64,000 bases of DNA from positions 13,239,840 to 13,303,839 of the forward strand of contig NC_057749.1 in NCBI RefSeq assembly GCF_004010195.1, written 5' to 3'. Below the pieces are notes generated by a model, which saw only the letters and a program-made list of their open reading frames with translations, did not search any database and had not been told where the DNA came from. Origin of the DNA: Chiloscyllium plagiosum. Its lineage: Eukaryota. Position numbers and translations under genes: made by a program. Positions 71 to 63,145 of the stretch are shown in pieces (within the stretch, counting starts at the first letter, position 1; every line of letters begins with the position of its first letter).

Positions 71-2737
71 ATTTTCCTTCAGCTTCGTACACGGATGGTT
101 CAGGAGCTAAGCTCATTACAGTTCCCCAGTCATCTCCTTCCCTCTTTGTCTCCTCCTCTCCCCTATTTTGTAGAAGACCCCCCACTCTCCACTACCTCAC
201 TCACTATCAAAAGTGCAGTTCAGATTGAGAAGCTGACAAGTCAGCTTAAATTGCACGTCCTAACCTTTTAACCATATGGAGGCATCTTTTGGCTTACTTC
301 TACGTCTGTCTGTGGAACAGACAACAATTTTAATGTTACCTCCAGCTGCCTGAATCCTAAGTTCTGGAATTTCCGCCCTGAACTTCTGTGTCCCCCTCTC
401 TGTCTTTTGCATTGTTTCTCAAAACCTGCTACTTTGTCCAAGCATTTAAACACCAGTCCAAATATTTCCTGAAGGGACACAGTGTTAAATTTATCCTCCA
501 CTTCACTGTGGTGTACAATGTTACAAAACTTATATAGGCACAATAAAAACCAAAAGTATTGTGGATGCTGTAAATCAGATACAAAAATCGAAATTGCTGC
601 AAAAGCTCATCAGGTCTGGCATCATCTATGGAGAGAAAACAGAGTGTCTGAAGAAGGGTCATTCGACCCGAAATGTTAACTCTGACTTCTGTCCACAGAT
701 GCTGCCAGATTTGCTGAGCTTTTCCAGCAACTTCATAAGTTGTTTTAAAAACGGGGATGAATTAAGGTGACAACTACATAGAAGAGGAGTCAGCGATTAA
801 CTCCTGCAATTATTAATTATTTAAAAATCTGATTTTTTTTTTAGTAATGGTCTGCTGACAAATTCCAGGAGAATTAGAGAGAGGTTTGGCCAACTTGGCA
901 GAAAGATCGTTAAGCAAGTGATACCGAAGCTGGGTGACAGTCAGAAATGGAGCTGCTTTTCCAAATTTGCCTTGGCTGATTTGGTGGGGGAGGGGGGAGA
1001 ATGGGGTGTCATACCAAGTTTTAAAATGAAACGCTGGAGGCTTGAGCATAGGATCCAGGCTGACATGCAGGGTGCTACGTTGTCAGAGGTGCTGACTTTT
1101 GGATGAATTGATAAACTGAGGCCCTTTCTGTCCTTTCGTCCATCTGAAGGATCCCATGACATTATTCTAAAAGCAGACAAATCCTCGCCCATGATTCTTA
1201 AACCAACATCAAGGATTGTCTTCTGTGGGACCTTGTTGCGCATACAATATGTGCCCTACATTACACCAGCGACTGTCGTTGTAATAGTAGCTGTAAATCC
1301 TAAGATTTAAGTGCAGGTTAGGGTGGATTGGCTATGCTAAGTTGTCAGTTGTGTCTAAGGATGTGTAGGCTAGGTGGATTAACCATGGGGAATGTAGGGT
1401 AGGGGGTGGGTCTGTGTGGACTCAGTGGGCCGAATAGCCTGCTTCCACCCTGTAAGGATTCAATACACAGATATTACTTGACCTGCTCCTGAGTATTTAC
1501 AACTTTATCTATTATGAAGGTTTGGAATTTCCATTTGTATTTTTATTTGTTTGACAGCTTCCACTACCGGCAGTGTTTATTTTTCAAGACTCTCTCGTAA
1601 AGGTTGGTAGTTTCTGCCTGTAAAGGTAGGAGGGGCAGAAACCCTAATATCATCGACGAAGTATTTATTGCACACCTGCAATGCTAAGGGGCATATAAGC
1701 TGTGAGCCAAGTTGCTAGAAAATGGGATCAGAATAGTTAGCTGGTTGTTTTTTGACCGGTACAGACTCGATGAGCTGTGCTCTATGACTCCATAAAATCT
1801 ACAAATAGTAGGAAAGACCATAAGGTCAATTGAAGGGATCACACTCGGCTACTGTTGTGATGCGAGTTGCCAAAGTAAATTCCGTCAACTCGAAGTACAG
1901 CAGAGAAACAAAATTGTGAAATATTCTGTCCCCCCCCTCCCCCCGCAACGTGTGTTTCCTCCCCGCGCCCGCCCAGAGACATTTTCTCACACAAGACAGT
2001 AAAAGGGTTGGGTTCAGCAGTTTTTGGAGCTGTCGCTGGCAGATGAACAAGTCATTGTTTTGCCAGGCTCATCTGAATGACAAAGCAAACGGCCACTTGA
2101 CACTTGTATGGGCTGTATCCCTCCTCCAGAAATAGTCTGACCCATTATCTGAAGGAGTCATTTGAAGTGTTTAATCAATTCCTGCACTTTTTCAAGAGAC
2201 CAATTTTGTTTAGATTGGCGAGTTAATGACAATGTTATTGATCCCTCAATCCAGTTTGACTCACCCTGGAACATCTCCACGTGGAGCTCTAGGCGTGTAC
2301 TGTATCATCCATGAGAAATTTTTACATTCAATTAAAATCTGCAGACCCTGACCCTGTAATGATGCCCATTTCAATTTAACTCCAATCCTACCCATGCTTT
2401 TTATGCTCTGTCAGGTTTTCATGTTTCGAAATCCTTTGCTTTTTTCATTAGTTAAAAACAAGAGAGTGTATGTCGAGTTTTATGTAAATTTGTTAGTGTT
2501 GCGATCTGTTCCCCATTTTAATTTACCTTCATTTTGCCCCCGCCCCAGTAACGCACCGGTTAAGAAATTTTAAAATCATATATGTGCACATTTGATTGAA
2601 TTGAAATGATAGGATACAGATTCATTTTTTAAATTAGCTTCGTCTCCTCGTTTTTAAGATGTAGTATTTAAAGATTGGACCTTTAAACCCACTTATATAT
2701 TGGGTTCCAGCTTATGAACCCTGTCTAAATGTGGGAG

Positions 2738-2917
2738 GAGATGATTGCAGATGCTCTAGGTCAGAGTCGAGAATAGAGTGGTGCTGGAAAAGCACAGCAG
2801 GTCAGGCAGCATCCGAGGAGCAGGAAAATCTACATTTCGGGCAATAGCCCTTCATCAGGAAATGATTTTCCTGCTCCTTAGATGCCGCCTGACCTGCTGT
2901 CCTTTTCTAGCACCAGC
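2738..2917. mobile_element. Hairpin-shaped PLE-derived element (family A)
   Basis: Inverted repeat of ctggaaaagcacagcaggtcaggcagcatc. 13-bp TSD CTAAATGTG(G/A)GAG at 2725-2737 and 2918-2930. Hammerhead-like motif on the - strand at ~2827-2862. Confidence 0.75.
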
Positions 2918-4706
2918 CTAAATGTGAGAGATGCACACTGCCAGCCTGTAGATTATTTGTGGTGCAGTGGTAGCGTCCCTGCCCCTGGAGTGGGAGGGGT
3001 GGGACTGGGGGCGGCTGAGTCTCACCTGCTCCAGAGATGTTCTACAACATGTCTGGATAGATCGATTAGAGAAAATGTCTAGGAAGCGATTCCCGTTTTA
3101 TTGAAACCACGAGGCTACTCTTCCAGCCAATCCGCAGTTTCCGAACGTGTCCACCCTCGTGTTCCCTTCAGCAACAACTTCTTAAAATCAAAATAGCTCC
3201 TTTATCCGAACTTGAAAGAAGAATTAGAGATGAGAGCCAAACTTTAAAGGGAGTGGGGAGAATATGGGTCCCGGTTTGATCTACTTTACAAACCGGGAGA
3301 ACAAAGAGCAAAATTCGAGGAGAACTTGGAAATTTTAACCTTTGCATTCTTTGGAATTTTTCTGCCAAGAATTTCAGTGGCGCTCACTGTAATCGGCGAG
3401 AACACTCGGTAATATTGCACTGGACTGGAAGGGGAGAGAGTGTAAAATCACACTTTAGAATCTGTAAGGAGCGCTTGTTCAGAAACTGAAATCCCCCTCG
3501 GGTGTTTAAAGAATTGAACCTTTTAACTGTGGAGCTGCGGGTAATTTAATCAGAGTTTAATCCGCCGTTGCTGTTGTGTATATCAGACAGGTCTTGAAAA
3601 CGACCAGATTGCAAATAAATGCCCCAGGTACTGGCAGATGTGCAAATGCTGCCACTTTTTTTTAATACACTGTACGCAAATGAAACGAGACCAAAAGAGA
3701 ATGCGATTAAATGTCTAAGCATGTGGCTGTAAAATTGTAATAGCAACCACATTATTCTGGGAACGTCGTTTCAGTGGAACACAAAAGCTGGAGTCCTGTC
3801 TCTCTGTTGCAAACCGAATCCCTTGTGTGCTTTATTTTCAACCGACCTTCCCCCACTACTGTTCAATCCCTATTGAGATCATTGGTTCCCCCTATATCCA
3901 AGAATGGCTCATTGTTAGCACCCAGCCCCCTACTCCACAACTTCCTGTGTGTGCTTACTTTGGAAATGTTTACGTAACTTGGAACAGTTTCTGTACTCGC
4001 TGGCGCTCGGGGAGAGTTCACTGGCAGCTAGATATATCCAGATGGTCCCACTCTGTTTAATAAACAACATCATACTACAACACGTCTTACACCCGCCACG
4101 CTTCGAGGCTCAGGACTGTTTATTTGAATATTTGGATAATGAAGCGCAAAGGACAATGAAAATAAAACTTTTCTTAAAAAAACAGCTCCAAAGGCGGGAT
4201 TGCCTTGTTGAGTCGTTGGATTGGCACATTTCAACCAATGTGGTGTTAGGCCACGTGTTTTGTTTTACAGCTACTATACGTGGGACATAATATTAACATC
4301 GAATCAACTGTAATTCGAAGATGTGGGGAGTGAAAAACGCATGTCTGACCGAGGGCTAAAAAAGAAAGAAGTGTTCAGGATATTTAAAGTGGAGGGAATT
4401 ATAAAGTTAGCCCCTGGTTCATTGACAATGTTTTATCATTTCACTGCATTTGTTGCCCATTCCTCTTGAACTGACTGACACGCTCAGCTATTTCAAAGTG
4501 TATTTAGAATCATACAATTCCTGGAGTGCGGAAATAGACCATTCGGCCCATCGGACGCCCCCCCCCCCCTCCCCAAAGAGTACACCACACCCCTCCCCGT
4601 GCCCCTATAACCCTGCATTTCCTATGGCTAACCCATCTAGTCTGCACATCCCTGAACAGTATGGGCGACTTAGCTTGGACAACCCACCTAACCTGCACAT
4701 CTTTGG

Positions 4707-4908
4707 CAATAAAAATGGAAAGCATTGCGGATACTGTAAATCAGAAGCAAAAACAGAAGTTGCTGGAAAAGTTCAAAAGGTCTGGTAGCATCTGTGGAGA
4801 GAGAGATCAGAGTTAATGTTTTGGGTTGAGTGGCCCTTCCTTAGAACAGGCACTTTCTGTCCACAGATGCTACCAGACCTGTTGAACTTTTCCAGCAACT
4901 TTTGTTTT
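4707..4908. mobile_element. Hairpin-shaped PLE-derived element (family B) inserted into an HE1 SINE
   Basis: Inverted repeat. 13-bp TSD TGCACATCTTTGG at 4694-4706 and 4909-4921. Related copies at ~541-735, 16030-16147, 28650-28790 and 57180-57315. Confidence 0.78.
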
Positions 4909-6625
4909 TGCACATCTTTGGACTGTGGGAGGAAACCAGAGCACCCGGAGGAAACCCACGCAGACATGGGGAGAATGTGCAAATTCCACACAGACAGTTG
5001 CCTGAGGCTGGAATCCAATCCTAGTGCTGAGGCAACAGCCCACCACTGAGCCATAGTGCTGTCCTGGCACAATTCAACTACTTTGCTGTGAATCTGGGGT
5101 CACATGTAGGCCAGACCAGGCACAGTTGGTGATTTCCTTCCTTAAAGAACTGTATAACATCTACAATAGTTTCATGGTCACCCTTACTGATACCTTTCTG
5201 TTACAGATTATTGTGAGTTGAACTTGAATTGAACAAGTTGCTCTCGTCGGATTTGATTATTATATCACTGTCTCCACACAATGACCATCATATATCCCGG
5301 TAGAGTTTCAGGCTTAGCTTGAAGTTGACAAGTGTGGGTCCTAGACTAGTGTTTCAAACCTAAAACAAGTATTTTAAACCCAAATAAAGGAAATTATAAG
5401 GAGATAAGCAGAACTGGGAAACTTGGCAGAAAGCATGTACAGTCCAGACCCAGGGTGGACTTTAAGGAAATACTTTTAAAAGCACATTTATTTAATAGGG
5501 TTGTAGGTAACAATGTGGGAAAGATGTGCAAATTGTGTGAAAGTTGAAGAGAATTGGGAGTTGAAGATTGCAGGTATAGACTTGGACATTGAGAGGTCCA
5601 GATGTCAGATGTTGAGGTACGAGCAGAGGGGAAGGAAACGAGCTGGACTTGGTATGCTGGCTGGAAAATCTTTAACATAGTTTTCATTCATTCACAGGAC
5701 GTGCGTGCCCCTAGTTAAGCCGGTATTTATTGCCCAGCAGGCATTTAAGAGTTATCTGATGCAGACATGATGGGCTGAATGGCCTCTTTCTTCACTTCTA
5801 AGATTCTGTGAAGAGTTAACCACTTTGCTTTGGGTTTGGAGTCACATGGAGGGCAGAGACGGTAAGGGTGGCATGGTCGTAAAAAAAGGACATTGTCATA
5901 AAAATGGTTCTCCACCTATATTCCAGATGTCTCATTTTCAAAAATTAATTTAAAGCTCATCATCTCGCATGGTAGGATGCAAAACTGTATCAGTAGAGAA
6001 TTGGCTTGCGATTCCACATGGCTAGACTAGTGACAACAGCACTAGCTGGTCTGCAGTGCAGAGTAATACCAACAACGTGGGTTCAAATCCCATCGCCGCC
6101 TGAGGTTACCACAAGGGTCTCTCTCCTTGTCTTTCTCTCCCCCTAAGGCATGGCGACCCTCCGGTTAAACTACCACCGGTCATCCCTCTCTAATGAGCCC
6201 CATGGTCCTCTGGACAATGGTGACGTCCACCACTGTCTCTCCCAGCTTTGTGGAGGCTGAGAATTCTGTCAAACGCTGGAGGTGGTAACAGGCGAGCAGA
6301 AGGGGGTTCAGAAGAGCCGAGGTAGGGAGGGAGGCGAAGCAGGCCTGGATGCGCGATCCTGGTGATGGGGAAAATTTATGTGGGCTGGAAAGATTGAAGA
6401 GGTCACCCAGTTTGGGAACAGAGTGATGCAATGGCTTGGGGGGATGGAATGGAATCGCTGGCAGGAGAGGGGGGAAACTGGTGACCCGACTGAGGGAGCC
6501 AAGAATGTCAGACGTGCGGACGAACAACAGGTCAATGGAGGGGGAGATGGAGGGTTTTTTTCTGAAGCCGAGAAGATCAGGCAAAAACAGGACTAGACAA
6601 AGCAGATACAAAACTGTAATCTGAA

Positions 6626-7275: not shown

Positions 7276-8067
7276 TTAGGGAAACCACAAGTTCAGGAGG
7301 AGGAGGAGAGCACACCACGTGTGTGTCTCCAGTCCTGAGGAGTCATTCAGTGGCGAGTCCTCTCCGTCTGTAGTTTCTGGCCTTAAATCCGTTTTGTTCA
7401 TTTCATAATCGTCGTATTCATAGTTCTCTTCCGAGTCCGGAGTGGCCGTAAACAGCGAGGGGCCTTCGATGGAGCAGAACTTCTCCATGTTCTCCTTCAC
7501 CACCTCGCAGAAGGGTCTCTCCACCCCGTCGCAGACGCATGTGTTCAGCAAGATCCCACTGGGAATGGACAGCAAGTGCTGGATGGTGCTCTTGCAGACG
7601 GCGGTGCAGCGCTTGCCGTTGAAGAGCTGCCCGCAGTTGGACAGGTACTCCTTCATGGCACCGTGACACACCGGCTCCTTCTCGCAGCGCTGACGGGCCG
7701 CCGTGCACCCGAGGTCGGCCGCGTCCGGCGACTGGCCCCGGTACCGCCTGGGCATGCACGGCTCGATGGCCCGTTTGGCCCGTCTGCACTGCACATCCTG
7801 ACCGCAGTCGCAGTTCTCCAGGTCGGGGCCGTTCTGGGTCTGGTTGAGTTTGACCAGGGCGCCGATACAGTGGCTGGGACACTGGCGCCTCAAGCCCTTG
7901 AGGAAGGGCTCGCAAGCCGCGCTGTACTGACTGTACGCCCACTTACACTCTTTCTCCTCCTGACAACGGAGCACCGCTTGCCAACACACCGACTCGGCCC
8001 CGCTCACCGAGCTCAGACAAGCCAAGATCGCCAGAGAGTACCAACTGACCCTGGCGGCCTGGAGCAT
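7276..8067 (-). CDS. gas1: Growth arrest-specific protein 1-like (GAS1/GAS1b), single exon, 263 aa
   Basis: Intact GC/CpG-rich ORF. It has a signal peptide (MLQAARVSWYSLAILACLSSVSG), two Cys-rich GFRalpha-like domains with GAS1 motifs (CWQAVLRCQEE..C..AYSQY..AC, CPSHCIGALVKLNQT..GPDLENCDC, CGQLFNGKRCT, CVCDGVERPFCEVVKENM), an acidic linker and a GPI-type hydrophobic C-terminus. Confidence 0.93.
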   Translation of the reverse strand: MLQAARVSWYSLAILACLSSVSGAESVCWQAVLRCQEEKECKWAYSQYSAACEPFLKGLRRQCPSHCIGALVKLNQTQNGPDLENCDCGQDVQCRRAKRAIEPCMPRRYRGQSPDAADLGCTAARQRCEKEPVCHGAMKEYLSNCGQLFNGKRCTAVCKSTIQHLLSIPSGILLNTCVCDGVERPFCEVVKENMEKFCSIEGPSLFTATPDSEENYEYDDYEMNKTDLRPETTDGEDSPLNDSSGLETHTWCALLLLLNLWFP

Positions 8068-8639
8068 CCTTCAACAGCATCCGTAACTCCCTGGCTCAAA
8101 GCGACCGGATCGGTTGCATCCTGAAGCCGGCTCCCCGGTCTGCTTTTTTCCAAAGCCCCCTCTCAGTTGCATAACAGCGGGTGTTAGTGATCTCCCACCC
8201 ACTTCCTCCACTCTCCCAGACCCCAATGTACACTCACCACCACTCTTCCCACAACAAGAAAGTCAAAAATCTACTCGAGGAACCAATCAAGAAAACTTCA
8301 TCCAGCCTTGTCTCCGAGGAGAATACTGAAAATCGGCAGGAGAACTGAAGTTACAATCCACCCTCCCTCCCCTTTGTCCTGGAATCCTCACAATTGTAAC
8401 TCACAGAAATTTGCCGCGGGTTTTTTTTTGCGCCAGATGCAAATTGTCAAAGTACTCTCTTTCTCAGACTCCCCTTCTCTCTCCCTCTCTGTAAACTATA
8501 GCTGCTCTCCAGTGTTCCACATCACGCCTGATTTAGCAAGCTCAAACTCTTGTCCAACTTTCCCCTCCCTCTCTCCCCAAACCGAGGGATGGAGGGGGAG
8601 AGAAAGACAGCGAGAGAGAGAAATCTTATTTTTTTTTCC

Positions 8640-8940: not shown

Positions 8941-10725
8941 TGGTAAAACAAAATACACAGAAGCTGCCTGGGTGCATTTCAGCAAGAGATCCAGGCCAGC
9001 CTCTATCTCCAACCCAACCCCCTTCCTGCCAGGGCGGTGAATAGCATTTTCTGGACCGTTTGCTTCACTTTATGGGAGATGGGTTTGCATGCAAACCTCT
9101 CATACCGGGACGCCAGAGGGAATTGTTTCCGCCCTGCAAGCCATGAATAGAGGCCCTCCCCCCTCTCTCTCTCCCTCCATGGTCAGTGAGTGTTTTCCAG
9201 GCGGTGGGTGTGTGTATGGGGGGGGAGGGAGGGGTTCCCCTTTTTAAGACTCACCCATTCAACCTCACTTGATAAGCTCACCACACACACACACACACAC
9301 CCCTCGCCGCAAATGGCGAGCAGCCCCCAGTTTGATTCTTTTCTCTCCAACAACCAACCCCCTCCCAACTCACCCATTGAGATGTAAAGCGGCGAATTCA
9401 GGAGTAAATCGGCGGACACCATGACCGCGTTTGACAGTCCGGGATAAGAAAGGGGGTGGGAGATTCAATCTGAAGGCAGAGAAAGTAAAAGACTCGAGTT
9501 TTGTTCCCTGAAAGGGGCTTCTCCTCCCCCACCCCCATGGTCAGGCAGGCGTCTCAAATCCTGTTCTGAGTACATCAACACTAACTTACGTTGGAGTCAC
9601 AGAGCTGTACAGCACAGAAACAACACCCTTCAGTCCATCTCGACCAGATGTCCTAAATTAATTTAGTCCTGATTGCAGCCATTTGACCCATATTCCTCTA
9701 AACCCTTCCTATTCATATACCCATCTAGATGCCTTTTAAATGTTGTTATTGGTCAATGAAACAGGTTTTACAACAATCTAAGATGTGGGAGCAGAAGTAG
9801 ACCATACAGCCCATCAAGCCCACTCCAGCATTCATTGAGATTGCTACTGATCTGATAATCCTCAACTCCACTTTCCTGCCTTATTTCAGTAGCAGTTGAT
9901 GCCCTTAATGATTACAAATCTATCTCAGTCTTGAGTAGACTTAATGACCCATCCTCGAAAGCCCTCTGATTCACTACCTTTGTAAGAAAAAAACATCCTT
10001 GTCATCTCTGACACTTACTCTGAGATTATGCCTTCTGGATGTGATACTGATTTTCTATTTCAAATGTATTTCATTAACATTTAAATAATTGCTGAGGTAG
10101 GATTTGAGTTTACATTTACAGAGCATTTTTCTGGGCGTATAGATTGCTGGCCTAATATCATTATCACTAAATGTAACCATTTCACAGTCACCATTACCAC
10201 TCCTGGCTTATTATTCCAAATATGTTTAATTACTTGAATTTATTTCCCCCAGTTGCTGTGGTGGGTTTTGAACTCTTGTCTCTGAATCATTTATTAAGAT
10301 ATCTAGGTTACTAGTCCAGTAACGTAACCACTATAGGGTTATACGCCTGAAGTCCATACAAGACATATATTGTAACAGTGAACAGCAGCTGATTAAATGG
10401 ATTTCACCGTGAATGGTTCTATTTCACAGACTTTTTGCCTCTGGAGAAATACACCATTTGGGTTCAAGATAATTTGCTGTACAAGACTAATCTTCTGAAG
10501 ATAAACATTGAATCCCACAACTGCAACTGGGGAAAACAAAATTAGGACTGAGTACAGTGTACTTGCTAAAGGATGTACTGGCACTGGAGGGGATGCAGAG
10601 CAGGTTCACTGGGTTGACTCTGGAACTGAGAGGTTGACTTATGAGAAAAGCTTGTGTACATTAGGACAATAATCATTGGAATTTAGAAGAATGAGGGGCG
10701 ATCTTATAGAAACATATAAAGTTAT

Positions 10726-11008
10726 ATTAGATTCCCTACAGTGTGAAAACAGGCCCTTCGGCCCAACCAGTCCACACCGACCCTCCGAAGCTAATGCACC
10801 TAACACTATGAGCAATTTAGCATGGCCAATTCACCTGACCTGTACATGTTTGGAGTGTGGGAAGAAACCAGAGCACCCCGAGGAAACCCACGCAGACACA
10901 GGGAGAATGCGCAAACTCCTACACAGGCAGTCGCCCAAGGCTGGAATCGAACCTGGGACCCTGGCGCTGTGAGGCAGCAGTACTAACCACTGAGCCACCA
11001 TGCCACCC
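10726..11008 (-). mobile_element. HE1-type SINE inserted in a CR1 LINE fragment (10520-11375)
   Basis: Reverse complement of the 63756 element. Further copies at ~4510-5068(-), 20708-20968(+), 31045-31260(-), 36797-36980(+), 57715-58030(-), 63283-63500(+) and 1310-1465(+). Confidence 0.8.
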
Positions 11009-17064: not shown

Positions 17065-17113
17065 CAAGTTGAGGGAATAATTTGGCAAAATGAACAGTAA
17101 TGTCTTCAGTGAA

Positions 17114-17343
17114 CAAAGTTTGAAGATCACACAACACCAGGTTGTGGTCCAACAGATTTAATTGGAAGCATACTAGCTTTTGGAGCACTGCTTCTTCATC
17201 AGGTGGTTGGTCCCACAACCACCTGATGAAGGAGCGTCGCTCCGAAAACTAGTGTGCATCCAATTAAACTTGTTGGACCACAACCTGGTGTTGTGTGATT
17301 TTCAACTTTGTACATCCCAGTCCAACACCAGCATCTGTAAATC
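17114..17343. mobile_element. Hairpin-shaped PLE-derived element (family C) with hammerhead motifs on both arms
   Basis: Long inverted repeat. 14-bp TSD ATGTCTTCAGTGAA at 17100-17113 and 17344-17357. Confidence 0.8.
17220..17254 (+). ncRNA. Minimal hammerhead motif, family C (one substitution)
   Basis: CAC-CUGAUGA-A-GGAGC-GUC-GCUCC-GAA-AACU-A-GUG. The inverted arm (17171-17205) shows the palindromic AGCU. Confidence 0.6.
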
Positions 17344-18707
17344 ATGTCTTCAGTGAAGCATTTGAATCAGTTATATTTTTCGCAAAATTGTGACAGATAT
17401 CTTTATTTCGCCTCATTGATGTTGAACCACAATCACCAAATTTATTGAGGTCAATTTTCCAAGTTAGCAGTGAAGTAAGGAGGACGAAATGTAATATTTG
17501 TGCTAATTTGGTTGTTAGTTCTAATAACAGAACCAATGCCACACAAAAGTTTCCCGCATAGAATTCTATATCCATTGATGGTATGTGGGCACTGCTGGCA
17601 GAGCCATCATTTATTGCCGATCAATGACTGCCGTCAAGAAGTTGCAGTAATCTACCTTTTTAAACGACAGTCCTCTTTCCAAGCCCCACAGTGCTGTTAG
17701 GAATGGAGGTCCGTGGATTTTGATGTCATGACATTTGAAGGCACAATGACATCTATTCCAAATCAGGATGATACGTAGCCTGAGGGGGAACTTGCAGGTA
17801 TCCCCATACATACGCTCCCCTCATCCCATTGTGATTGCAGCTTTGTAAGGTGTTATCGAAGGAACCTTGGTAAATTATTGCAGTGCATCTTATAAATGGC
17901 ACACCTTGCTGCCGCCCAGTTGATGGTGGTGGAGGAAGTGAATGTTGAAGGTGGTGAATAGGGTGCTACTCACGCTGGCTACGTTGGAGAGGTGATGGCG
18001 TCGTTAGACTCTTAATTCAGAAACCCAGGCAATGTTACGGGGACCTGGGTTCGAATCCCACCATGTCAGATGCTGGAATTCAAATTTTGATTTTTAAAAT
18101 CTCTGGAATTAAGATTATGGTGACCATGAATCCATTGTCAATTGTCAGACAAAGCCATCTGGTTCACTAATGTACTTTAGGATAGTGTTAAACTACTTAA
18201 GTGTTATTGTAGTTGCAGCTAACCAGGCTAATGGAGACCATTCAGTCACACTTCTACTTGTATCATGTAGATGGTGGCACGGTGGTGTCAGGATTTGAGT
18301 TACCTGTTGAAGCATGCCCAACCTCTGACCTGCTGTTATAGGTGCAATGGTTGGTTCAGTTCAGTTTCTGCTGAACTTACATTCTGCTGAGAATGGTTAT
18401 AGGATTCATGTTGTTGTGGACTGATATATTCTGTGATTAAGATGTAGATGTATTTTAAAGCGTCATCTCACTTTAATACCTCACTGTCAGAGGCCAGTCA
18501 GAATTTAGTTGTTGGAGGTGAAAAGGTTTACAGATTGCAAGGAGTTTATCATTTCTTGCTCACAGAACATAAACAGCACGTTTTCTATATAACATCTCCA
18601 TTTTGAAAAGTAATTAACACCCTCAATGAAAATCAGTGAACTCAGTAACACCTTTAGAATTTTTGGCCTTCCCTGTTTCAAATTCAGATTATTTCCATAT
18701 TGCAAGT

Positions 18708-19435: not shown

Positions 19436-19987
19436 TGGTATATTGTCTCAAATCCGGCTGTCTAAAAATTGGCAATGTTGGAAAGCCGTTCAAAAGCAGC
19501 CATGATTGAATTTCAGTTATTATTAGTTGAGCAAAGTAGCTGGCTGGCTTTGAGTCTGTTGTATTCGTGGTCTGAATGATCCTTGACCCATTCTGACAGT
19601 ATATTGCTTGACCCAAAACTGGCAAGATTTGAAATCCAGCACAGACTTTGTCCTGAAGTGGGTGGTTTGAGGACATTTTACCCGTACTTACCCTGCTAAA
19701 ATAAAAGCATTTTGAGTTACTGTTGTGTCTTTCAGTTGTGTTCATAAACTAGTTCTGTCTGGATAGGTGAAAGTGAGGACTGCAGATGCTGGAGATTAGA
19801 GTCGAGAGTGTGGAGCTGGAAAAGCACAGCAGGTCAGGCAGCATCCAAGGAGCAGGAAAATCGATGCTTCGGGCAAAAGCCCTTCATCAGGAAGGGCTGA
19901 TGAAGAGCTTTTGCCCAAAACACTCCCGTTTGGATAGTATGGTTTATTGATTCTCTGATTGTCTTTCTCTCTCTCTCCCTTGAATAG

Positions 19988-21764: not shown

Positions 21765-22460
21765 AGTCAGAAATAAGTGGAAAATCTCAGCAGGTCTGGC
21801 AGGATCTAAGAAGAGAAATCAGAGTTAACATTTCAGGTCGAGTCACCCTTCCTCAGAACTGATGGTAGATCGGAAAAAGTTGTTTTTTATGGAGAAGTTT
21901 GGTACGGGGGATGGGGGTACCTAGTAAACGATAAGTGGAGATAGGGCCCAAAAAAAGAGAAAGGAGTGGATAATGATCAGCCTACACGAATGAGGACAAT
22001 GGGTAGCTAATAATAGGTGGTGTATAATAGCAGACCATGTGATAACAAATCCTGGTGTGTGGGGCTGGGGTAAGGAGATGGGAGAAGGTGCCTCATTCCC
22101 TAAAATTGTTGAACCTGATATTGAGTCCAGAAGGTTGGAGAGTTCCAAAAATGAGGTGGTGTTCTTCTAGTTTATGCTGAGCTTCGCTGGAGCACTGCAG
22201 CAAGCCTGAGACAGAGATGTTGCCCAGGGAACAAGGTGGTGTGTTGAAGTGGCAGGCCCAAGTGTTTGGGCCCTTGGATACTGAGGAGGGAGGAATTAAA
22301 TGGGCAAGTGTTACACCTGCAGTCGTAGGGGAAGGTATCGGGCTGTGGGTAGGCATTAATTGTGAAGGTCGAGTGGACCACGGTGTCCCGCAGGAACAGT
22401 CCTTGGTTGTAGAAGGCTGACAAGAACTGGGAGGGTGTGATGGTGGAAACTGGAAGCAAG
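21765..22460 (-). mobile_element. Penelope-like element 3' fragment (decayed)
   Basis: The - strand translates to SVSGLLQCSSEAQHKLEEHHLIFGTLQPSGLNIRFNNF, typical of a PLE endonuclease C-terminus. It is followed by the family-B terminal sequence with a hammerhead motif. Confidence 0.75.
21823..21860 (-). ncRNA. Minimal hammerhead motif, family B, at the 3' end of a Penelope fragment
   Basis: AGUU-CUGAGGA-A-GGGU-GACUCG-ACCU-GAA-AUGU-U-AACU. ACGU appears decayed to AUGU (CpG). A related + strand copy lies at 641-683. Confidence 0.6.
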
Positions 22461-40448: not shown

Positions 40449-40639
40449 TGAAACTTTATTGCTGGAACAGCACAGCAGGTCAGGCAGCATCCAGGGAACA
40501 GGAGATTCGACGTTTCGGGCACAGGCCCTTCTTCAGGAATGAGCAGAGAGTGTTCAGCAGGAGAAGATAAAAGAAGATATTGTTCCAGCAATAAAGTTTC
40601 AACTTTGATCTCCAGCATCTGCAGACCTCACTTTCTCCT
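40449..40639. mobile_element. PLE-derived element (family A) inserted in a CR1 LINE
   Basis: 13-bp TSD CAAACTTAGAGGC at 40436-40448 and 40640-40652. Carries the intact hammerhead motif. Confidence 0.8.
40505..40540 (-). ncRNA. Minimal (short stem III) hammerhead ribozyme motif, intact, family A
   Basis: AUUC-CUGAAGA-A-GGGC-CUGU-GCCC-GAA-ACGU-C-GAAU. Complete core, stem I AUUC/GAAU, stem II GGGC/GCCC, GUC cleavage triplet. Confidence 0.8.
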
Positions 40640-42783: not shown

Positions 42784-43525
42784 CAGCAAAAACAACATGT
42801 GACCAGAAACCCTAGCCACTCTCCCCTACATCAAAGACATCTCGGAAATGACTGCCAGACTACTCAGACTACTTGGCATCATGGTAGCCCATAAACCCAC
42901 CAACACACTAAAGCAGCAGCTAATGAACTTGAAAGACCCTATACAGACAACAAGCAAAACTAATGTCATTTACAAAGTACCGTGCAAGAACTGTAACAAA
43001 CACTACATTGGACAAACAGGCAGAAAACTAGCCACCAGAATACATGAACATCAACTAGACACAAAATGACGTGATCCTCTCTCACTAGTATCCTTACATA
43101 CAGATACGGAATTCTAGATTAGAGTGGTGCTGGAAAAGCACAGCAGTTCAGGCAGCATCCAAGGAGCAGGAAAATCGACGTTTCGGGCAAAAGCCCTTTA
43201 TCAGGAATAGTAAGGAAGGACACCACTTTGACTGGAACAACACATTCATCCTCGGACAAGCCAAATAGAGACACACATGAGAATTCCTAGAAGCATAGCA
43301 TTCCAACTGGAACTCTATCAACAAACACATTGACTTGGGCCCAATTTACCATCCCGAAGAAAAAGAATGGGAAATGACATCACCAACCCAAAGAAACCCA
43401 AACATATAAATAGATAGCAGGAATCATCAGCAGTACTTCATCCGGGGACTCACTGAAGATGTTACCTAGGTTGGTGATGAAACCTCTGAAAATGAACCTT
43501 CCAGTTCAGTGAGCAAACCCACATC
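42784..43525 (+). mobile_element. Penelope-like element 3' fragment (GIY-YIG endonuclease remnant + 3' end)
   Basis: Translates to TLPYIKDISE...NVIYKVPCKNCNKHYIGQTGRKLATRIHEHQ, a PLE GIY-YIG signature. Flanked by CAGAATAG at 42776-42783 and 43526-43533. Inserted in a CR1 fragment. Confidence 0.85.
43450..43489 (+). ncRNA. Degenerate hammerhead motif, family D, downstream of the Penelope GIY-YIG ORF
   Basis: UCA-CUGAAGA-U-GUUACC-UAGGUU-GGUGAU-GAA-ACCU-C-UGA. Stem I UCA/UGA, stem II includes G-U pairs. Confidence 0.55.
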
Positions 43526-45064
43526 CAGAATAGTAACAGTCTGGGAGCGCACTGCCAGGTGTGATGGTGGAGACAGCTTTAATAGTGATGTTTAAAGGAC
43601 TTTTAGATAAGCATTTGAATATGAAAGGAATGGAAGAATATGGACTAAGGGCAGGTAGAAGAGATTAGTTTAATTTTGCATCATGTTTGGTGCAGCATTA
43701 TGGGCCGAAGGGCCTGTTGCTGTGCTGTACTGTTCAATATTTTGTGTAATTGTTTGGTTTTTATTTTCATGATTCTCTAAATAGGGGCTCAGTTCTACAG
43801 CCAATGGATAATATTAAAGCTACCACTACCTTTCAGACATATGACACTGTGTACAAACTGCATCTATTGACAAGATGTCCATCATTTCCACGCCGCCTCA
43901 CATAGAAGTCTTAGCAAACCAACCCACAATATCCAAGCAACTTGATCAGAATCAGCCTTGTATTTTTACTTTATTATTTGAAGTAGGCCAGGAGGTTTGG
44001 TAAAAAAAAATGGAGTTGTCCCATTGGTAAATATATTCCAGATCAGAAAGCCAAGATCAGTTGGCGACATTAACTTGAGATGTAAACAAATTAATGAGAT
44101 CTTTGAGCTAAATGTTGTATATGGCCAGAGGTTTCAAAGGAGCTTCAAAACTTGGACATCATCTTTGACACCATATGCTTCTATCTAACAGTTCCTTTAA
44201 TCACAGTAAGTAGAAGCAGGCAAGTTATGCTAAGTATTTATAGATTGATGGCTTGGTCCCAACTTGAATAGAGTATTGCCTCTCAATGCTCTACTGCTAC
44301 TGCTCCTCGGGTGCTGCCTGAACTGCTGTACTCTTCCAGCACCACTAATCCAGAAAATTGCCTCTCAAGTCTGGGCAACACACTTTGGGAAGAATGGTAA
44401 AGAAACAGAGGATGCAGAGGAGATGTCAGAAATCAGGGGGTTGAGTTCAAACAGAATATTAAACTGTGGTTGTTCTTCTGCAAGTAGGGAAGGTAAGCAG
44501 AACATTTAAAGGGAGTTGCTTAAAATCAGTGCTAAGAAGAAGAAACTGTTTATGCTGATGGAAGGGCCATTAAGCAAAAGGCACACGTGTAATATAATTG
44601 ACATAGAATCAGTAAGGAAATGTGAGATTGTTTTCTTATGGAGTGAGTTATGGTTTGGACACAGAACCTTGGAGGAAACAGGTCTGATAGTAATTTCTAA
44701 AAGGGAATTGAACAAGAGTCATAGAGTCATGCAGCACAGAAGCAGACCCTTAGGTGCAACTTGCCCATGCTGTCCAGGTTTCCCAAACTAAGCTAGTCCA
44801 ATTCACCAGAATTTGGTCCATGTCCCTCTAAATCTTTCCTATCCATGCACCTGTCCAAATGTCTTTGAAATGTTGTAATTGTAGCCACCTCGAACACTTC
44901 CTCTGGCTTGAACAGAGAAAAAACTATTGCAGGGCCATAGGAAAAATCTGAGGCTATGGAGCTAATTGGTTTTCTTTTCCTGCACAAATGTAATGGATTG
45001 AATAGCCTCCTTCTTCCCTGTAAACACCCCCTTTTGGACAAGATGTTGCCCCTCAAGCATCCGC

Positions 45065-49442: not shown

Positions 49443-51501
49443 GGCTGCCTGATTATGGTCTCAACTTCCATTTTCCTGTTAACTCTAGACTGCTTTGTCC
49501 ATCGAAAATCTATCCAACATAGCCTGGAATAAATCCAATGACCACCACTCCACTGTTTCCGCAGACAGTCTCTGCGAGAAAACATTTCCCATCATCTCCA
49601 TCCTAAATGTGAGAGCCTCTTATCTTTAGCGTGTCCCCTTGTTCATGTGTCTTCCACAAGAGGAAACATCCTTCCAGTCCTCAATCAGAATCCCATACAT
49701 TACAATAAATCTCTCATTCTTCTCGACGCCAACCCTTTAAACATTTCTTCTTTAAGTGAACCCTTCACCCTAGGAATTGAACTAGGAAGTGAATTACATC
49801 TGAACAGCTTCTAGTGCAATTATATTCTTTTGCAAATACAATTATTCAAAAGTGTGCATTTGGAGAAAAGTAATCTGTATCTTAACTTCATTTAATAACT
49901 CTGAATTCCAAGGTAAAATGGTAGTGTGGTTTAGTGTTGCTGTCCAATAATCCAAATGCTGTGGGTCAAGGGTTCAAATCCCATCATGGTGGCTGGTGAG
50001 CAAATGTTGAATATAAAGCTATTATCAAATTGGCATAAAAGGCCAACTGGTATCAGTAATACTTTTAAGCAACGAAACCTGCAGGTTTGGCCGTTTTGTG
50101 ATTCCAGGCTCCTAGTAATATGGTTGACTCTTAACTGCCTTCTGAAAATAGCTGAGTAAGTCACTAAGAGGCAATTAAGGAGGGACTTTCCAGTAATGCC
50201 TACACCCCAACCAAAGAAGCGTGTCGCTGTCAAGCATCCATCAATCTCAGTTCTGAATTTTCAGTTGACCCTCCAGTCTAATGAGAGATCAGAACTTGAC
50301 TTAGACATGATGACTCCCACACTTGAATGACTTGATGCCAGCTCCTAACTTTTGCCTCTCCAAAACCTTTCTACCAACTCACAAGGCACATGTCGTGAGT
50401 GTGAAGCATTACTCCCTGCTTGTCTGGGCCAGTGCAGTTTCAGCAACACAAATGCATCTCAACACCATCCAGGATAAAGCAGCTAGCTTGTTCAAGACCA
50501 CATTTATTGAGTAACAGTCATAGAGTAATACAACACAGAAACAGACCTTTTGGTCTAACCAGTCCATGCTAATCATAATCCCAAACTAAACTAGTCCCAC
50601 CTGCCTGCGCTTGGCCCATATCCCTCCAAACATTTGTTATTCATGAACTTACTTAAATATCTTTTAAATGTTGTAACTGTACTCACATTCACCACTTCCT
50701 CTGGAAGTTCATTCCACACACAAACTACTCACCTTTTAAAAAAATCTTTCTCCTCTCACCTTAAAAATATGTCCCCTAGTCTTGGAATCCCCCACCCTAG
50801 AAAAATGACACCTGCCATTCACCTTATCTATACCCCTCATGATTTAATAAACCTCTATAAGGTCACCTCTAGACTCCAGTGAAACAAGTCCCAGCTATCC
50901 AGCTTTTCCTTATAACTCAAAGTCTCCATTCCTGGCAATATCCTGGTAAATCTCTTTGAATCCTTTCCTGCTTAATAATATCCTTCCTATAGCAAAGCCA
51001 CCAGAATTGGACACAGTAGTCCAGAAAAGGTCTCATCAACATCTTGTACAACCTCAATATAACATCCCAATTCTTAGACATTCACTCCTTGTACCTCCAG
51101 CGCACAGTGGCAGCCTTGATCATAATGAATTGTGGACAAGGCTCAAGGGGTCAAACAGCCTACACTTGCTCCCATCTTCTATGTTTCTACATAAGGATCT
51201 GGGCCACTCAATTTCAGTCCCTTACAATGAACAGGCCGAGTTCTCACCACACCTGGTGATGGGCTTTTGCCCAAAACGTTGATTTTCCTGCTCCTCGGAT
51301 GCTGCCTTACCTGCTGTGCGTTTCCAGCACCACTCTAATTTAGACTCTCACCACACCACACCAGAGCTCGATTTGAATTTCCCACAGAGGGGCCTCCTAC
51401 TGCACCCTCCATCTCTATGGACCACCATGTCCACTGTAGGTAATGATTTTGTTGGGGTCTGATTCCGATTGTTTACAGACTGAGGGCTACGTTTGACTTA
51501 C

Positions 51502-55332: not shown

Positions 55333-55557
55333 AGGAGAAAGTGAGGACTGTAGATGCTGGAGATCAGAGTTAAGAGTGTTGTGCAGGAAAAGCACGGCAG
55401 GTCAGGCAGCATCTGAGGAGCAGGAGAATCGACTTTTCAGGCAAGAGCCGATCATCAGGATTCATTCCTGATGAAAGGCTCTTGCCCAAAACGTCAATTC
55501 CCCTGCTCCTCGGATGCAGCCTGACCTGCTGTGGCTTTACCAACACCACACTCTCAA
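55333..55557. mobile_element. Hairpin-shaped PLE-derived element (family A) with two decayed back-to-back hammerhead motifs
   Basis: Inverted repeat. 13-bp TSD TCCTGGGAAAGCT at 55320-55332 and 55558-55570. Other family-A copies at ~19765-19922, 43110-43210, 51254-51345 (12-bp TSD) and 63048-63146. Confidence 0.78.
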
Positions 55558-58500
55558 TCCTGGGAAAGCTCCCTGTTCAACTTCAACACGTGTCATAGCA
55601 CTCATTACATCCACTCTTGTAATCAGACATGTCTCATTTGAAATGCACCTCTGGCAATACAGGGCTCCCACTAACACATCAGGCTAAATTATCTGCTCAA
55701 AATCCAACAACGGGTATCCATTAGGCTCTCTATTTTGCTAACAGGTCTAAGATGACACCATTTATAACATTACTTACATTCTTCAATTCTTAGGTGTTAA
55801 TTTAACATAATACCAATCCCTCAGGGATGGCCATTTGATGGCTATTACAGACCACAATTACAGGAATCAAAAGAAGAAAGACATGCATTTATATAGCACC
55901 TTTCCCAACTGTGGACACCTCAAAGTGCTTTACAGCAAGCAAGGAACTTTTGAAATACTGTTACAAAGGGAGAAAATGTGGTGTCAAAATGCCTCAGTAA
56001 ACACACGACATGCAGTACGGAGATAAAGCCTTGACCAGTCAAATGGCCAAGTCCTGCACTGATCTTCAATGTTTCTATGATGAGAATATGATAACTATTG
56101 GAGTGTGAATGCCACTCCTTTGGGGTTAGTGTCTTATTCACATGACGACGAGTTTGAAATGGGATTATGATTGGCATGGATTGGTTGGACCAAAGGGTCT
56201 GTTTCTGTGCTGCATGACTCAATGAATTGGCAGCAGGGGATGAAGATTTGGTGCAAAAGTGACAGGAAGCACAGACCTACTTATCCTCCAGTTCCATTGA
56301 CTGAGCATGCCTCAGGACAGAAGTTGGATTGAGTGGCTTGTGGTTTGCCCTATTGAGGGACTTAAGTTGTGACATAATGGTAATGTTACCAGACTGGCTA
56401 ACTTAGATATCTATAATGATCGTCTGGAGATATCAGTTTGAATCCCATCACAGAATTAATCTGGAATATAATGAGAGTCTCAGAGATGATAACCATGAAT
56501 GTTGTCACTGTTGTAATAACTCATCTGGTTCACTAAAGGCCTTTAGAACATAGAACTGTACAGCACAGGAACGTGCTCCTCAGATCATGATGTTGTGCCG
56601 AATATGGCGCCAAATTAAACTAATCCCTTCAACCTGCCCTTGCTCCATATCCATCCATTCCTTGCATATTCATGTGCTTCACTAAAAGTCCCTTAAACAT
56701 CCCTATCAGAGCTGCCTCTTCCACCACCCCCGGCAGCGTGTTCCAGACTCCTAGTACACTCTGTGCAAACAATTTTCCCCTCACATCTCCTTTGAACTTG
56801 CCCCCTCTCACCTAAAATGTATGCCCTGTAGTATTAGACATTTTGACTCTGGGAAAAAGATTCTGACCATCAACCCATCAACATCACATTACTTTATAAA
56901 TTTCTACCAAGTCTCCCCTCAACCCCACTGCTCCAGGGAAAACAACCCGAGTTTTTCTAGCCTCTCGTTATAGCTCAAGTCTTATAACTCTTTTAGGAAA
57001 GGAAATCCGCTGCCCTTACCCGGTCTGTCCAACATGTGACTCCAGACCACAGCAATGTGGTTGAGTTTAAAGGTAGAAAGGCCTAACAAGCCACTTAGTT
57101 CAAGGGGCAGTTAGGGACAGGAAACAACTGCTGGCCTTGCCAGTGGTGCTCACACGCTGTGAAACATAACACCAATATTTAAAAGCAAAATATCGCAGAT
57201 GCTGGAAATCTGAAACAAACTATGGAGAATGCTGGAGAAACTCAGCAATTCTGGCAGCATCCGTGGAGAGAGAAACAGGGTTAACATTTTGAGTTCAGTC
57301 TGATCCTTCTTTAGATCTCAGCACAACCGCCAAATCAAGCAACAACATTTGCTGTTTAGGCTCAGGGTAAGCGGTTGGTGTCTTGAACAAGGTGTCACAG
57401 GAGGTTATCCCCTGGCAATCCAGTGATGGGTCAGCACATTCTGGGGAAGGAGTGAAAGGGAAATGTTTGAAAAAAAATGGATATTGAATATAAGTCAAAA
57501 GGCTAAAGTGGAAGCTCAATATGAAGTGGTTCAATGTCCCACAGATTTAATTATCAATATTTTCTGATCAACAGTATTATTACTTGACTTGAATCCAGAA
57601 CTCTTGGCTGAAAGGTAGGGCACTACTACTGCACCACACAAGCCCTACAGATTTGATTATGGTGCAAGGGTCTATGCTTTCTGTCTTCCTTGCCAGTTTT
57701 AACTTTACACAACTCCCCACAGAGTGGATGCAGACCATTCTACCTATCGAGTCCAGACCAACACTCCAAAGAGAATCACTCCCAGACCCACCCCTACCCC
57801 ATCCCTGTGTTTCTTGTGGCTAATCCACTTAGCCCACACATCCACAGACACTATGGTCAATTTAGAATGGCCAAGTCACCTAACCTGCACATCTTTGGAC
57901 TGTGGGCGGAAACCCACACAGACATGGGGAGAATGTGTAAACCCCACAAAGGCAGCTGCCCAAGGCTAGAATCGAACCCAGGTCCATGCTGCTGTGAGGC
58001 AGTAGTGCTAACCACTGAGCCACAATGCCATCCTCTCTTGTGTTATAACAAATCTATAAACAGCACCCTCTCATAACATGGCCAAGGTTCTCAATCCCAA
58101 CAAAGTTTAGAATGTTTTTGTTCTCCTTTATATCCCATTAATCCTGATTCCATTCCCTACCTGGCGTTGCCATGTCCCAGTGCTCCTTGTGACCCACGTT
58201 AATTTTCCTGCAAAATGAGAAAGATCAGTTCAGACAGCCGGCATGGTCTCAGTTGGCATTTTATCAAATTGCAACGGTAAAGTCAGTCACAGCAGGGAAG
58301 AAACAGTAATGCTCAGTGTGACACTGGGATGACGTAAAAGGAATCTACCAAGGATATGCAACAACAACTTGCATTCATATTACACCCTTACCATCCCCAA
58401 GGCACTTCTTTAAGGGTTGGACAAAGTTTGACACTGAGCTACATTGGGAAGTTTTAGAACGGGTTACCAGATCTTGGTTTTGAAGTAAGTTAAAGAAGAT

Positions 58501-59924
58501 GTGGAGAAGATTTAGGGAGGGAATTGCAGAGCTCAGAATCTCTACACAACTAATGGAATGGATGCCAGTGATGGAGCAGTTAAATCGGAGGATGCTCAAG
58601 AGGCTGGATTTGAGGAGTGCAAAAACCTTGGAGGATTGGAGGAGATTGTGGAGATAGAGAGGTGAGAACCAGGGAGGAGCACATCTCTGTTAGATTGGGC
58701 TGATTAGCCAGTGTGTGGGTCAGAAATAGCATCAACTCTGCCAGTTCAATTCCTGTTCCAACTGAGCTAGACTTACCATCTGACTCTGAGTATTGAAAAC
58801 AGCAGCAAGTCACCACTGAGGAGCTACTGCCATGACAGCAGCTCAGGGTGAAGCTTCAAGAGTTCCGGTAAAAAGCCAAGGACCTGCCTCAAGTGAAGTT
58901 CATCAAGAGTCAGGCCAATTAGGAGCAGGAACACCAGTTCTTTCATTCTCCTGCCTTCTTACCATCTAAGACAAAGGAAGTTTTGCATTTCTATAGTGCC
59001 TTTCACAGCCACAGGATGTCCCAATCATCTTTGTGGTTAACAAATTACTTTGTGGAATGTTGTCACATCGAAGACATGGCAGTCAACTCGCATGCATCAA
59101 AGATGCCACAAAGAGCAATGTAATCATCTGCTTTTGTTATACTGGGTGAAGGTTAAGTATCAGCTAGGACACAAAAATAAACAACCTTCTCTAATCTTCT
59201 TTGCAAGGTTGAGAGGGAAAATTCCATCTGAAAGGTTGGCAACAGTGCTACACTTGCTTAGCATTGCAGTGAGTTCTCAGTCGAGATTTTTATGCTCAAG
59301 TCTCAGAAACAGGATTTGTAACGATGATCTCCTGACTCAGAAACAAGAGTGTTAAGCTGTGAGTTACAGCTGTCAACTAAATTTGAACAAATTGAGAGTT
59401 AAACAGAGATTGTGGTTTACAGTCATAGAGTCATAAAGCTGTATACCAAGGAAGCAGAGCCTTTAATTCAACTTGTCCATGCCGACCGGATATCCTAAAT
59501 GAATCTAGTCCCATTTGCCAGCATTTGGCCCATATCCCTCTAAACCCTTCCTATTCATATGTCCATCCAGATGCTTTTTAAATGTTGTAATTATAACAAC
59601 CTCCACTGCTTCCTTTTCAGCTCCTTCCACATACTCACCACTGTCTGTGTGAAAATGTTGCCCCTTAGGTCACTTTTAAGTCTTTCCCCTCTCACCTTAA
59701 ACCTATGCCCTCCAGTTTTGGACTCCCCTACCTTGCGGAGAAGACCTTAACTATTCACCCTATCCATGACCCTCATGATTTTATAAACCTCTATAAGGTC
59801 ACCCCTCAGCCTCTGACATTCCAGGGGAAATAGCCACAACCTATTAAGCCTCTCCTTAATAGCTTAAGCCCTCCAACCCTGGCAACATCCTTGTAAATCT
59901 TTTCTGAATCATTTTATCCTTCTC

Positions 59925-62085: not shown

Positions 62086-63109
62086 AAAAAAAGTACAATC
62101 ACAATATTCAACTCCATATGCCTTTTCGTCACAGTTTGCTCAATGCATTTGGTTTATTTTGCTTGTTTACTTTGTGATACCTTGCCATTTGCAGGTGGAC
62201 TGCAGTGTTTTGTACAACAATTGCAAAACTAATGCATGGAATGCCTTGAATTCATGAAAGGTACGTTGCCAATACAAGTCTTCAGTTTTCTGATATGGCT
62301 CCCTTTGGTCACCCTGGCCAAACGGATCCTTACCTGGCTCACTCACAGCTTTTCTTCCTACTTGTTAAAGGTATTATATAGATGCAAATTGTTGTTGTAT
62401 TAAGCATATTTAATGCAGGGCCTCCAGCTGCTCTGTATTTTGACAAACCATTAAAGGGCATTTTTATTCTGATTCAGGTGAGTTAGATTCAATAGTTTAG
62501 TTGTTGAATCTATTTTTGCATTGTCTGATCATCAGTGGTTTTACCAAAACTAGACTCAACGAACAAACAAGAGCAGCCAGGTCCCCAGACAGGATAGAAA
62601 AGAGCATCGTTGGCATCAATGTTGACCAGGGATTGGATGGGTCATTGTGGTTCATGATCACATAGTCTGTGTAGTGCGGTGGTAGGAGTTGGTCTCTGTC
62701 GATGTACCGAGTCTCATTGTGTTAGACATTGATCCTGAGTGTAGACATGAAGGACCTTCCACTAGCAAGCCCTTGTGTTTTCCCCACCCCAGCATTATTG
62801 ATGGAACAGCCAATCTTAGGCAATGGTACATTTTTGTAAGTTGCAATGTTATTGTTTTCCTCGACATCCAGTTACTGTGTTGGGAAACTGCACAACTGAG
62901 CTCCTCTGATATAAAATTCCCATTGAGTTTTGTTTGAAGTTAAGCAGAAATAACAAGGAAAAGGAAGGAAATAGATTTGAATTTACATAGTGTCCTTAAG
63001 TGCTACGCAGCCAATTGGTTCTTTTTGAATTCTAGTAATGCAGGAAACAAAGTTGAAACTTTATTGCTGGAACAGCACAGCAGGTCAGGCAGCATCCAGG
63101 GAACAGGAG

Positions 63110-63145
63110 ATTCTACGTTTCGGGCACAGGCCCTTCTTCAGGAAT
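63110..63145 (-). ncRNA. Minimal hammerhead ribozyme motif, family A, GUA triplet
   Basis: AUUC-CUGAAGA-A-GGGC-CUGU-GCCC-GAA-ACGU-A-GAAU. Differs from the 40505 copy only at the H17 position. Confidence 0.75.

Follow-up and report, generated by a model that had tools for sequence, protein, structure and literature searches.

The closest described relatives of the sequences studied here are the minimal hammerhead ribozymes (min-HHRs) of metazoan Penelope-like elements (PLEs; PMC4209133), and the function of hammerheads in those PLEs that bear an endonuclease (EN+) is an open question (PMC8557442, PMC11167929). A 64,000-nt stretch of the genome of the shark Chiloscyllium plagiosum (NC_057749.1, positions 13,239,840 to 13,303,839, hereafter the window; host genome 3.56 Gb) contains motifs of this kind in four families, A to D. 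We conclude, with a probability of roughly two in three, that they are the terminal-repeat hammerheads of three EN-bearing PLE lineages, and that the stubs of 90–130 bases that make up most genomic copies likely arise when reverse transcriptase (RT) runs off the capped start of uncut RNA.

Like the min-HHRs, the shark motifs are of type I, lack loop III and present a palindrome at positions 15.2–16.2, an extra base between positions 9 and 10.1, a G10.1–C11.1 pair and a short stem I; in both cases the copies are mostly solo and derive from truncated elements, and each genome holds covarying families (PMC4209133). The architecture with extra base and palindrome is the consensus already published in that work. 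Stem II differs, with 4–5 bp in families A to C compared with 7–8 bp in Schistosoma. Our host is absent from those named in the passages of that paper drawn on here, and two of its three supplements hold no shark term.

We number the motif from core residue C3 as +1, the base preceding C3 being 0. A descriptor requiring stem I of at least 3 bp, CUGANGA, zero or one extra base, stem II of at least 3 bp, GAA, a 4-nt slot and H finds five matches in the window, against a mean of 0.05 in 100 dinucleotide shuffles. Two belong to family A, both on the minus strand: an intact motif at 40505–40540 (C3 40536, predicted cut 40509/40508) inside a copy at 40449–40573, and one at 63110–63146 (C3 63141). 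The others are a family B motif at 21823–21860 (minus strand, C3 21856, slot AUGU), a family C motif at 17220–17254 (plus strand, C3 17223) and a family D motif at 43450–43489 (plus strand, C3 43453). The core requirements C3-U4-G5-A6-N7-G8-A9, G12-A13-A14, A15.1-U16.1 and H17 are present in all five and in 64,604 exact pattern matches genome-wide (A 47,841; C 14,923; D 1,475; B 365). These are real minimal hammerhead ribozyme sequences, of type I. Rfam misses every hammerhead motif of the window: at E ≤ 10 it returns seven weak matches there, none to a hammerhead family.

An earlier note on this DNA had named seven sites, and the five above are those that pass the descriptor. The other two, listed there under family B, are decayed. 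At 641 the core is intact (648–681, plus strand, slot AUGU), but stem I lacks its AGUU arm and the copy, the right arm of an inverted pair at 546–734, starts at C3; in the copy at 28652–28786 (plus strand) G8 and G12 are both A. Details at the accepted sites also need correction. The family C form with slot AGCU and A at position 17 is real genome-wide, as its exact matches attest, but the slot at 17220 reads AACU; AGCU was reported there because two inverted arms had been blended, and it sits on the minus-strand arm (17171–17205), where G12 has become A. The family D slot is ACCU and not palindromic, although the family form is ACGU (the 1,475 exact matches), and position 17 at 63110 is A and not C. 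The family A stem I given as AUUC/GAAU holds for one subfamily; in the commoner ones stem I has only 2 bp, a U·U mismatch and 1 bp, which counts against a strong ribozyme. The count of about a dozen full or decayed motifs was too low, as 17 window copies cover the core region and keep it recognizable.

The architecture itself was described correctly. We sampled the genome at 80 evenly spaced 10-kb stretches (779,750 called bases, large scaffolds only), and a descriptor tolerating one stem I mismatch finds 35 matches in 26 of them, compared with 0–3 in 10 shuffles. The extra base after A9 is present in 33 of the 35, where none or one was allowed, and 34 have a 4-nt slot although the descriptor allowed 4–8 nt; 24 of these slots are palindromic and the remaining 10 are CpG-decayed. 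It was also correct that the stems differ between families with pairing kept, since stems I and II covary between lineages. In a MAFFT alignment of 12 hand-picked natural motifs, whose rows are related and include two from family C that are misaligned against the structure, 80.8% of cells are paired, compared with 59.0% after shuffling; in six of ten pairs both positions change, and the covariation score reaches 0.561, where slid controls give 0.217 at most. Pair 10.1–11.1 is G-C in nine of the 12 motifs and G-U in three. Most telling are the homologous comparisons, A versus B and the three stem I variants within D (UCA/UGA, CCA/UGG and GCA/UGC). A fifth motif variant, related to D, was seen at two loci (L277:7119 and L108:2788), with stem I GCA/UGC, U at position 17 and a tail of its own.

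A Penelope origin, previously only asserted, now has RT and/or GIY-YIG endonuclease sequence to support it, which precedes the motifs of A, C and D. In family A, a 749-aa frame (RVT_1 E 1.2e-8; GIY-YIG E 2.9e-4, barely under the cut-off) with a DKG motif and a Cys linker ends 178 nt before a motif resembling that at 40536. The RT frame of family C (480 aa, 31% identical to A) has the Cys linker and ends about 760 nt before its motif; its RT was recognized by Pfam and its endonuclease by alignment. The linker reads CX2-5CxxC in the A and C frames. Frames with GIY-YIG precede the family D motifs as well (E 3e-3, plus partial RT), without Cys linker and at about 24% identity to A; in the window a decayed fragment lies at 42947–43108 (plus strand) and its element continues to about 43527. 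The D motif moreover opens a frame, as A9, the extra U and G10.1 spell ATG (43459–43461 in the window); this frame is kept in two D subfamilies, with no continuation into RT found. For family B, a decayed linker and GIY-YIG end of a Penelope-like open reading frame (ORF) at 22441–22102 (minus strand), which shares 41–47% identity with the ORF of family A, stops about 250 nt short of the motif, as does a decayed endonuclease at another locus (L076). Pfam scored only long frames and found no match on the short endonuclease fragments, and long "open frames" at several loci proved to be assembly gaps. At the level of sequence, A, C and D demonstrably derive from endonuclease-bearing Penelope-like elements; B, which is represented by decayed fragments only, probably does so too.

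The four families had been called unrelated. The tails of A and B align, however, at 66–67 of 100 nt (z 6.3 and 8.7 against shuffles), while the DNA of C and D is unrelated to A/B and to one another (z −1.8 to 1.3), which makes three lineages. By the linker rule, A, B and C would be Neptune/Nematis-like, B only through its similarity to A, and D would be Poseidon-like; these names rest on motifs because the protein atlas gave no result for the family A ORF. With the Neptune/Nematis EN+ PLEs (PMC8557442) the shark elements share the DKG motif, the CX2-5CxxC linker, a C-terminal GIY-YIG, an inverted 5′-truncated copy beside the repeat and an optional tail of 30–40 nt. Family D resembles PAc, the Poseidon element of Anolis carolinensis (PMC11167929), in the frame that starts at stem II and in the absence of the Cys linker, and its predicted cut lies 28 nt after the ATG, compared with 26 in PAc. 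Families A, B and C differ from PAc on both counts, having the linker and no frame that starts at stem II.

Several further observations concern these elements. Another Neptune-like ORF family, 50–58% identical to A, occurs at L165:3542-5068 and L131-L160; in those loci no ribozyme of its own, B-type or other, lies within 700 nt of the ORF end. The tails of subfamilies A1 and A2 (L021, L013, L064) contain, at about +47 from C3, an ATG that opens the same first codons before the sequences diverge in frame, possibly an ORF start or a relic; by eye the family B tail resembles this frame but stops early. At L167:3638-5204 a family D stub directly precedes a truncated family A ORF, giving an in-frame chimera. 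Family A stubs are also nested inside D and C elements, and in the window one is inserted into the family D endonuclease (43123–43209, minus strand; C3 43204, G8 changed). Between 36 and 46% of sampled family A repeat words are present in two other organisms (runs X16-X20).

The very large reservoir suspected in the earlier note is there. Reversed versions of the four exact patterns give 0 matches each. In the genome sample the strict descriptor finds 17 matches (11 in the first 40 stretches by themselves), against 0–2 in shuffles, which scales to about 78,000 genome-wide, and the 35 relaxed matches scale to about 160,000 (bootstrap 104,000–226,000); we thus estimate 78,000–160,000 intact cores, and as a round figure 100,000 motifs or more. 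The largest counts in PMC4209133 are about 9,000 in Xenopus tropicalis and about 4,000 in Latimeria, and any copy ratio to these is only rough because the descriptors differ. A survey of non-LTR (lacking long terminal repeats) vertebrate retrozymes, which likewise have type I hammerheads from PLE repeats, counted tandem arrays only, with a maximum of 14,255 in axolotl (bioRxiv 10.64898/2026.07.22.740005), whereas the shark copies are dispersed or inverted. That survey sampled one chondrichthyan and may list related shark families in its supplements. The whale shark paper PMC8455134 places Penelope among the repeats, and the passages we drew on do not mention a ribozyme. Searches of the open-licence literature returned no paper that describes these motifs in a shark or places a start site at the ribozyme edge; annotations may exist in Repbase or Dfam. 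The shark set is the largest group of hammerheads for which we found any count, and it offers several lineages, natural covariation and precise junctions.

These junctions carry our argument. The 3′ ends of copies fall at +85 and at +124 to +127, about 40 nt apart. All families resemble PAc in having two 3′ end points 30–40 nt apart, which in PAc correspond to two RT starts (PMC11167929). We mapped 5′ ends on copies found by their tails. Loci chosen through their protein and centre copies chosen through their ribozyme were excluded; the inverted partners of chosen copies were retained, as were 30 loci chosen by tail at one scaffold end. In family A, 53 of 140 copies start at −4 to 0 (hazard 0.17, compared with 0.012 per nt downstream), and the edge persists in non-inverted copies (31 of 78); in family C, 27 of 64 start at −10 to 0. 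Measured from C3, the edge is 4 bases upstream in A and about 8 bases upstream in C. The loose ends of an independent DNA run are most frequent at −3 (121, 207, 282 and 239 contigs at −5 to −2), as are those of the RNA reads, which come from one poly(A) single-cell run read at about 2%. Within one base of the predicted cut site (+29 in A), by contrast, A has 2 starts where 4.6 are expected and C has 0 where 1.4 are expected. Copies that begin before the core and not at the cut argue against self-cleavage as the process by which the copied RNA acquires its 5′ end. A minority of copies extend into the endonuclease frame. A splice acceptor was rejected as the cause of the edge in A and C, as there is no AG at that place and no common upstream exon. 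A pile-up before the ribozyme is not described for PAc in the passages of PMC11167929 that we drew on.

The base at the junction is itself informative. Genome-wide, the non-element base before the A at −3 of family A is G in 2,086 copies and A in 742, against a background ratio of 0.68. By hand count, a second A subfamily gives G 18, A 9 and T 5 over the unique flanks among 100 listed (p 2e-4), and the base before the A at −7 in family C is G in six rows (two from an inverted arm) and A in one. A G precedes 4 of 7 starts at −3, compared with 1 of 18 starts at +1 to +41. In the window, the family A copy at 63048–63145 (minus strand) has as its first base the A four positions upstream of C3; the G ahead of that A is absent from longer copies. 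We rejected a jump onto the cut 3′ product as the source of this G, as the excess persists in a subfamily with a different 3′ arm. An extra G is the mark of capped full-length L1 (PMC11702581); the passages of PMC13000458 and PMC11371274 considered here hold nothing on cap copying.

Upstream of the motifs lie TATA-like boxes, at −32 to −34 in B, −37 to −39 in C, −46 to −52 in D and −34 to −36 in A. The family B box in the window (21885–21891, minus strand) stands about 30 nt before the 5′ arm of stem I, whose bases are initiator-like, and that of family D (43405–43411, plus strand) 47 nt before C3; both would be promoter elements. In A and B the bases at the 5′ edge resemble an initiator. The arrangement would recall Penelope of Drosophila virilis, whose promoter and start site lie inside the terminal repeat, upstream of the ribozyme (PMC2377424). 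That promoter is, however, TATA-less and a 75-nt intron separates start from ribozyme, whereas the shark elements have TATA-like boxes upstream and their start would coincide with the 5′ arm of stem I.

Run-off from the capped start, which is our preferred reading, would proceed as follows. A polymerase II promoter in the repeat, made of the TATA-like box about 30 nt upstream and an initiator overlapping the 5′ arm of stem I, would start the RNA at that arm. RT would begin within the repeat, as has been demonstrated for the anole element, some 85 or 126 nt downstream, and would run off the capped end, copying the cap as an extra G and leaving a stub; longer copies would stem from the repeat further downstream. 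The head-to-head inverted pairs would be explained by priming on both strands of the target. The ribozyme of the source element is predicted to cut after position 17 only with an element protein or as a dimer, in which two palindromic slots would form stem III. If the 5′ repeat were cleaved, a capped leader of about 32–37 nt would be set free, and cut RNA would contribute little to insertions. The junctions thereby yield one sharp prediction, a capped start 4–8 bases before the core, and the value of the set lies in its scale and in this testable claim on the RNA start.

A number of results weigh against this reading. The 24 family D copies show no 5′ pile-up (three start between −23 and −11), the family B references are too diverged to resolve an edge, and the TATA-like box of family A is weak. 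At most non-inverted G-start loci the G also fits the target duplication, only one (L350) being clearly untemplated; element sequence lies upstream in 19 of 30 G-start loci, so that a target or partner preference may explain part of the excess. Between 11 and 14 of the 30 have unique flanks, and restriction to 11 of them, with no A rows dropped, brings the ratio to about 1.0, against the background of 0.68. Two of the five covariation measures, the pair and type counts, are not above shuffles (275 and 418 of 500), and free folding of two copies yields stem II swaps or other pairings and no clean dimer. None of 30 long-ORF candidate regions, several with assembly gaps, contains an element with both terminal repeats. 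Finally, the RNA reads map to both strands, as host transcripts would, and neither this sparse poly(A) run nor the DNA run shows a pile of molecule starts or ends.

Some of these points suit an edge made at the DNA level, by an endonuclease or by microhomology repair that favours ATT/AAT before the core, with RNA starting further upstream. The PAc endonuclease prefers 5′-ATT-3′ (PMC11167929), ATT occupies −3 to −1 in family A, and AAT lies nearby in some C copies; the G together with the bases that follow it frequently fits a target duplication, and family D has no 5′ edge. We nevertheless hold this explanation to be unlikely, for it accounts neither for a G excess confined to the −3 start nor for the presence, in B and C, of TATA-like boxes some 30 nt upstream of the edge, and many C copies have no AAT there. 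Less likely again is a motif that never cuts in the cell and is kept as an internal promoter, as the start of a reading frame or as a protein-binding fold. A promoter role would suit the ACGT found also in the downstream promoter element of Drosophila Penelope (PMC2377424) and the family B palindrome at +30 to +33 from the inferred start, but the distance of the palindrome from that start varies (+28, +30, +33) and family C uses AGCU. The invariance of the whole core and the covariation of stems I and II across lineages whose proteins are 24–58% identical also speak for cutting, as do homologous motifs that cut in vitro as dimers or with protein (PMC4209133, PMC11167929). On the other side, the 3′ core of D overlaps the conserved N-terminal frame, the most frequent A subfamilies have a weak stem I, copy ends show no enrichment at the cut site, and PAc ribozyme mutants still insert in vitro, with no RNA ends at the PAc cut site (PMC11167929).

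It is very improbable that the stubs form a separate, non-autonomous, retrozyme-like family replicating through self-cut circular RNA. Animal retrozymes do derive from PLE terminal repeats (bioRxiv 10.64898/2026.07.22.740005), and at 13 of 120 loci another motif lies on the same strand within 1.5 kb. The window, however, contains no tandem arrays of the ribozyme-bearing unit, the 5′ ends lie before the core and not at the cut, and the copies that run into the endonuclease frame fit such a family poorly.

Run-off from a capped start can be carried further, into a proposal that we make tentatively and consider possible but doubtful. The hammerhead would be the first structure of the capped transcript, with the stem I arm as initiator, and cleavage, by removing the 32–37-nt leader, would serve as a regulated switch for decapping. 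Integration would proceed from uncut RNA, a choice that the junctions would record by the tens of thousands and at single-base resolution, and host ADAR would edit core positions within inverted pairs.

The source elements are under selection, and the inserted stubs are fossils. In the DNA run, set against a young A copy, motif differences of at least 2% are confined, among the rows listed, to N7, loop II, the three CpG sites and a subfamily position in stem I. About 9% of copies have an altered G12, a proportion like that of other CpGs. Decay at the CpG rate argues that the general base is unprotected in inserted copies, while source lineages keep the CpG palindrome. The distances to the same-strand second motifs noted above vary. 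The few same-strand dimer partners, the CpG-rate decay and the hairpins of inverted pairs, which bury the motif, argue that the reservoir is mostly fossil. Inverted arrangements are frequent: an inverted motif lies upstream at 35 of 120 loci, and an inverted partner accompanies 61 of 140 A, 23 of 64 C, 8 of 24 D and 4 of 36 B copies.

The RNA reads carry A>G changes at A13, A14 and A15.1 in 6.2, 8.3 and 9.1% of cases on one strand, compared with 1–2% on the other and 0.06–0.2% in DNA. Strand-biased A>G, almost absent from DNA, is found at L021:1522-1524 and L162:5632-5633 and at several positions of the tail. Adenosine-to-inosine editing of inverted stub pairs in host transcripts is the likely cause, with the caveat that DNA and RNA come from different animals, that some non-A>G differences are strand-biased too and that single loci may contribute. 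Inverted stub pairs may also supply much of this animal's double-stranded, edited RNA, a role that Alu pairs have in humans.

The window illustrates these arrangements. At 17100–17357 lies one head-to-head family C insertion, with arms at 17109–17209 and 17213–17334 and flanking 14-bp direct repeats (17100–17113 and 17344–17357); its predicted hairpin folds at −154 kcal/mol, with the ribozyme buried. Family A forms inverted pairs at 2741–2915 (C3 2858 on the minus strand) and at 55333–55549, the latter with arms that meet at the fronts of the two hammerheads (C3 55458 on the minus and 55468 on the plus strand), and a copy at 19765–19921 (C3 19890, minus strand) has a short inverted arm. Decayed cores are found in a family B inverted pair (4712–4910), a family A stub at 51252–51334 (plus strand) and a family B stub at 57198–57318 (minus strand).

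Two other abundant dispersed repeats of the window, one at 9584–9792, 29020–29228, 44714–44922 and 59426–59634 and the other at 4611–5021, 10726–10953, 31053–31263 and 57707–57979, have no hammerhead core inside; we take them to resemble CR1-type LINE (long interspersed element) ends and a tRNA-derived SINE (short interspersed element). Within another dispersed repeat, 29183–29591 holds two tandem 204-nt copies that are 97% alike. A single 264-aa open frame at 7276–8070 (minus strand) with GDNF/GAS1 domains (Pfam E 3.8e-9) marks a GAS1-like gene, and an open frame at 34547–35044 (plus strand) contains a FIST_C domain and is presumably the last exon of an FBXO22-like gene.

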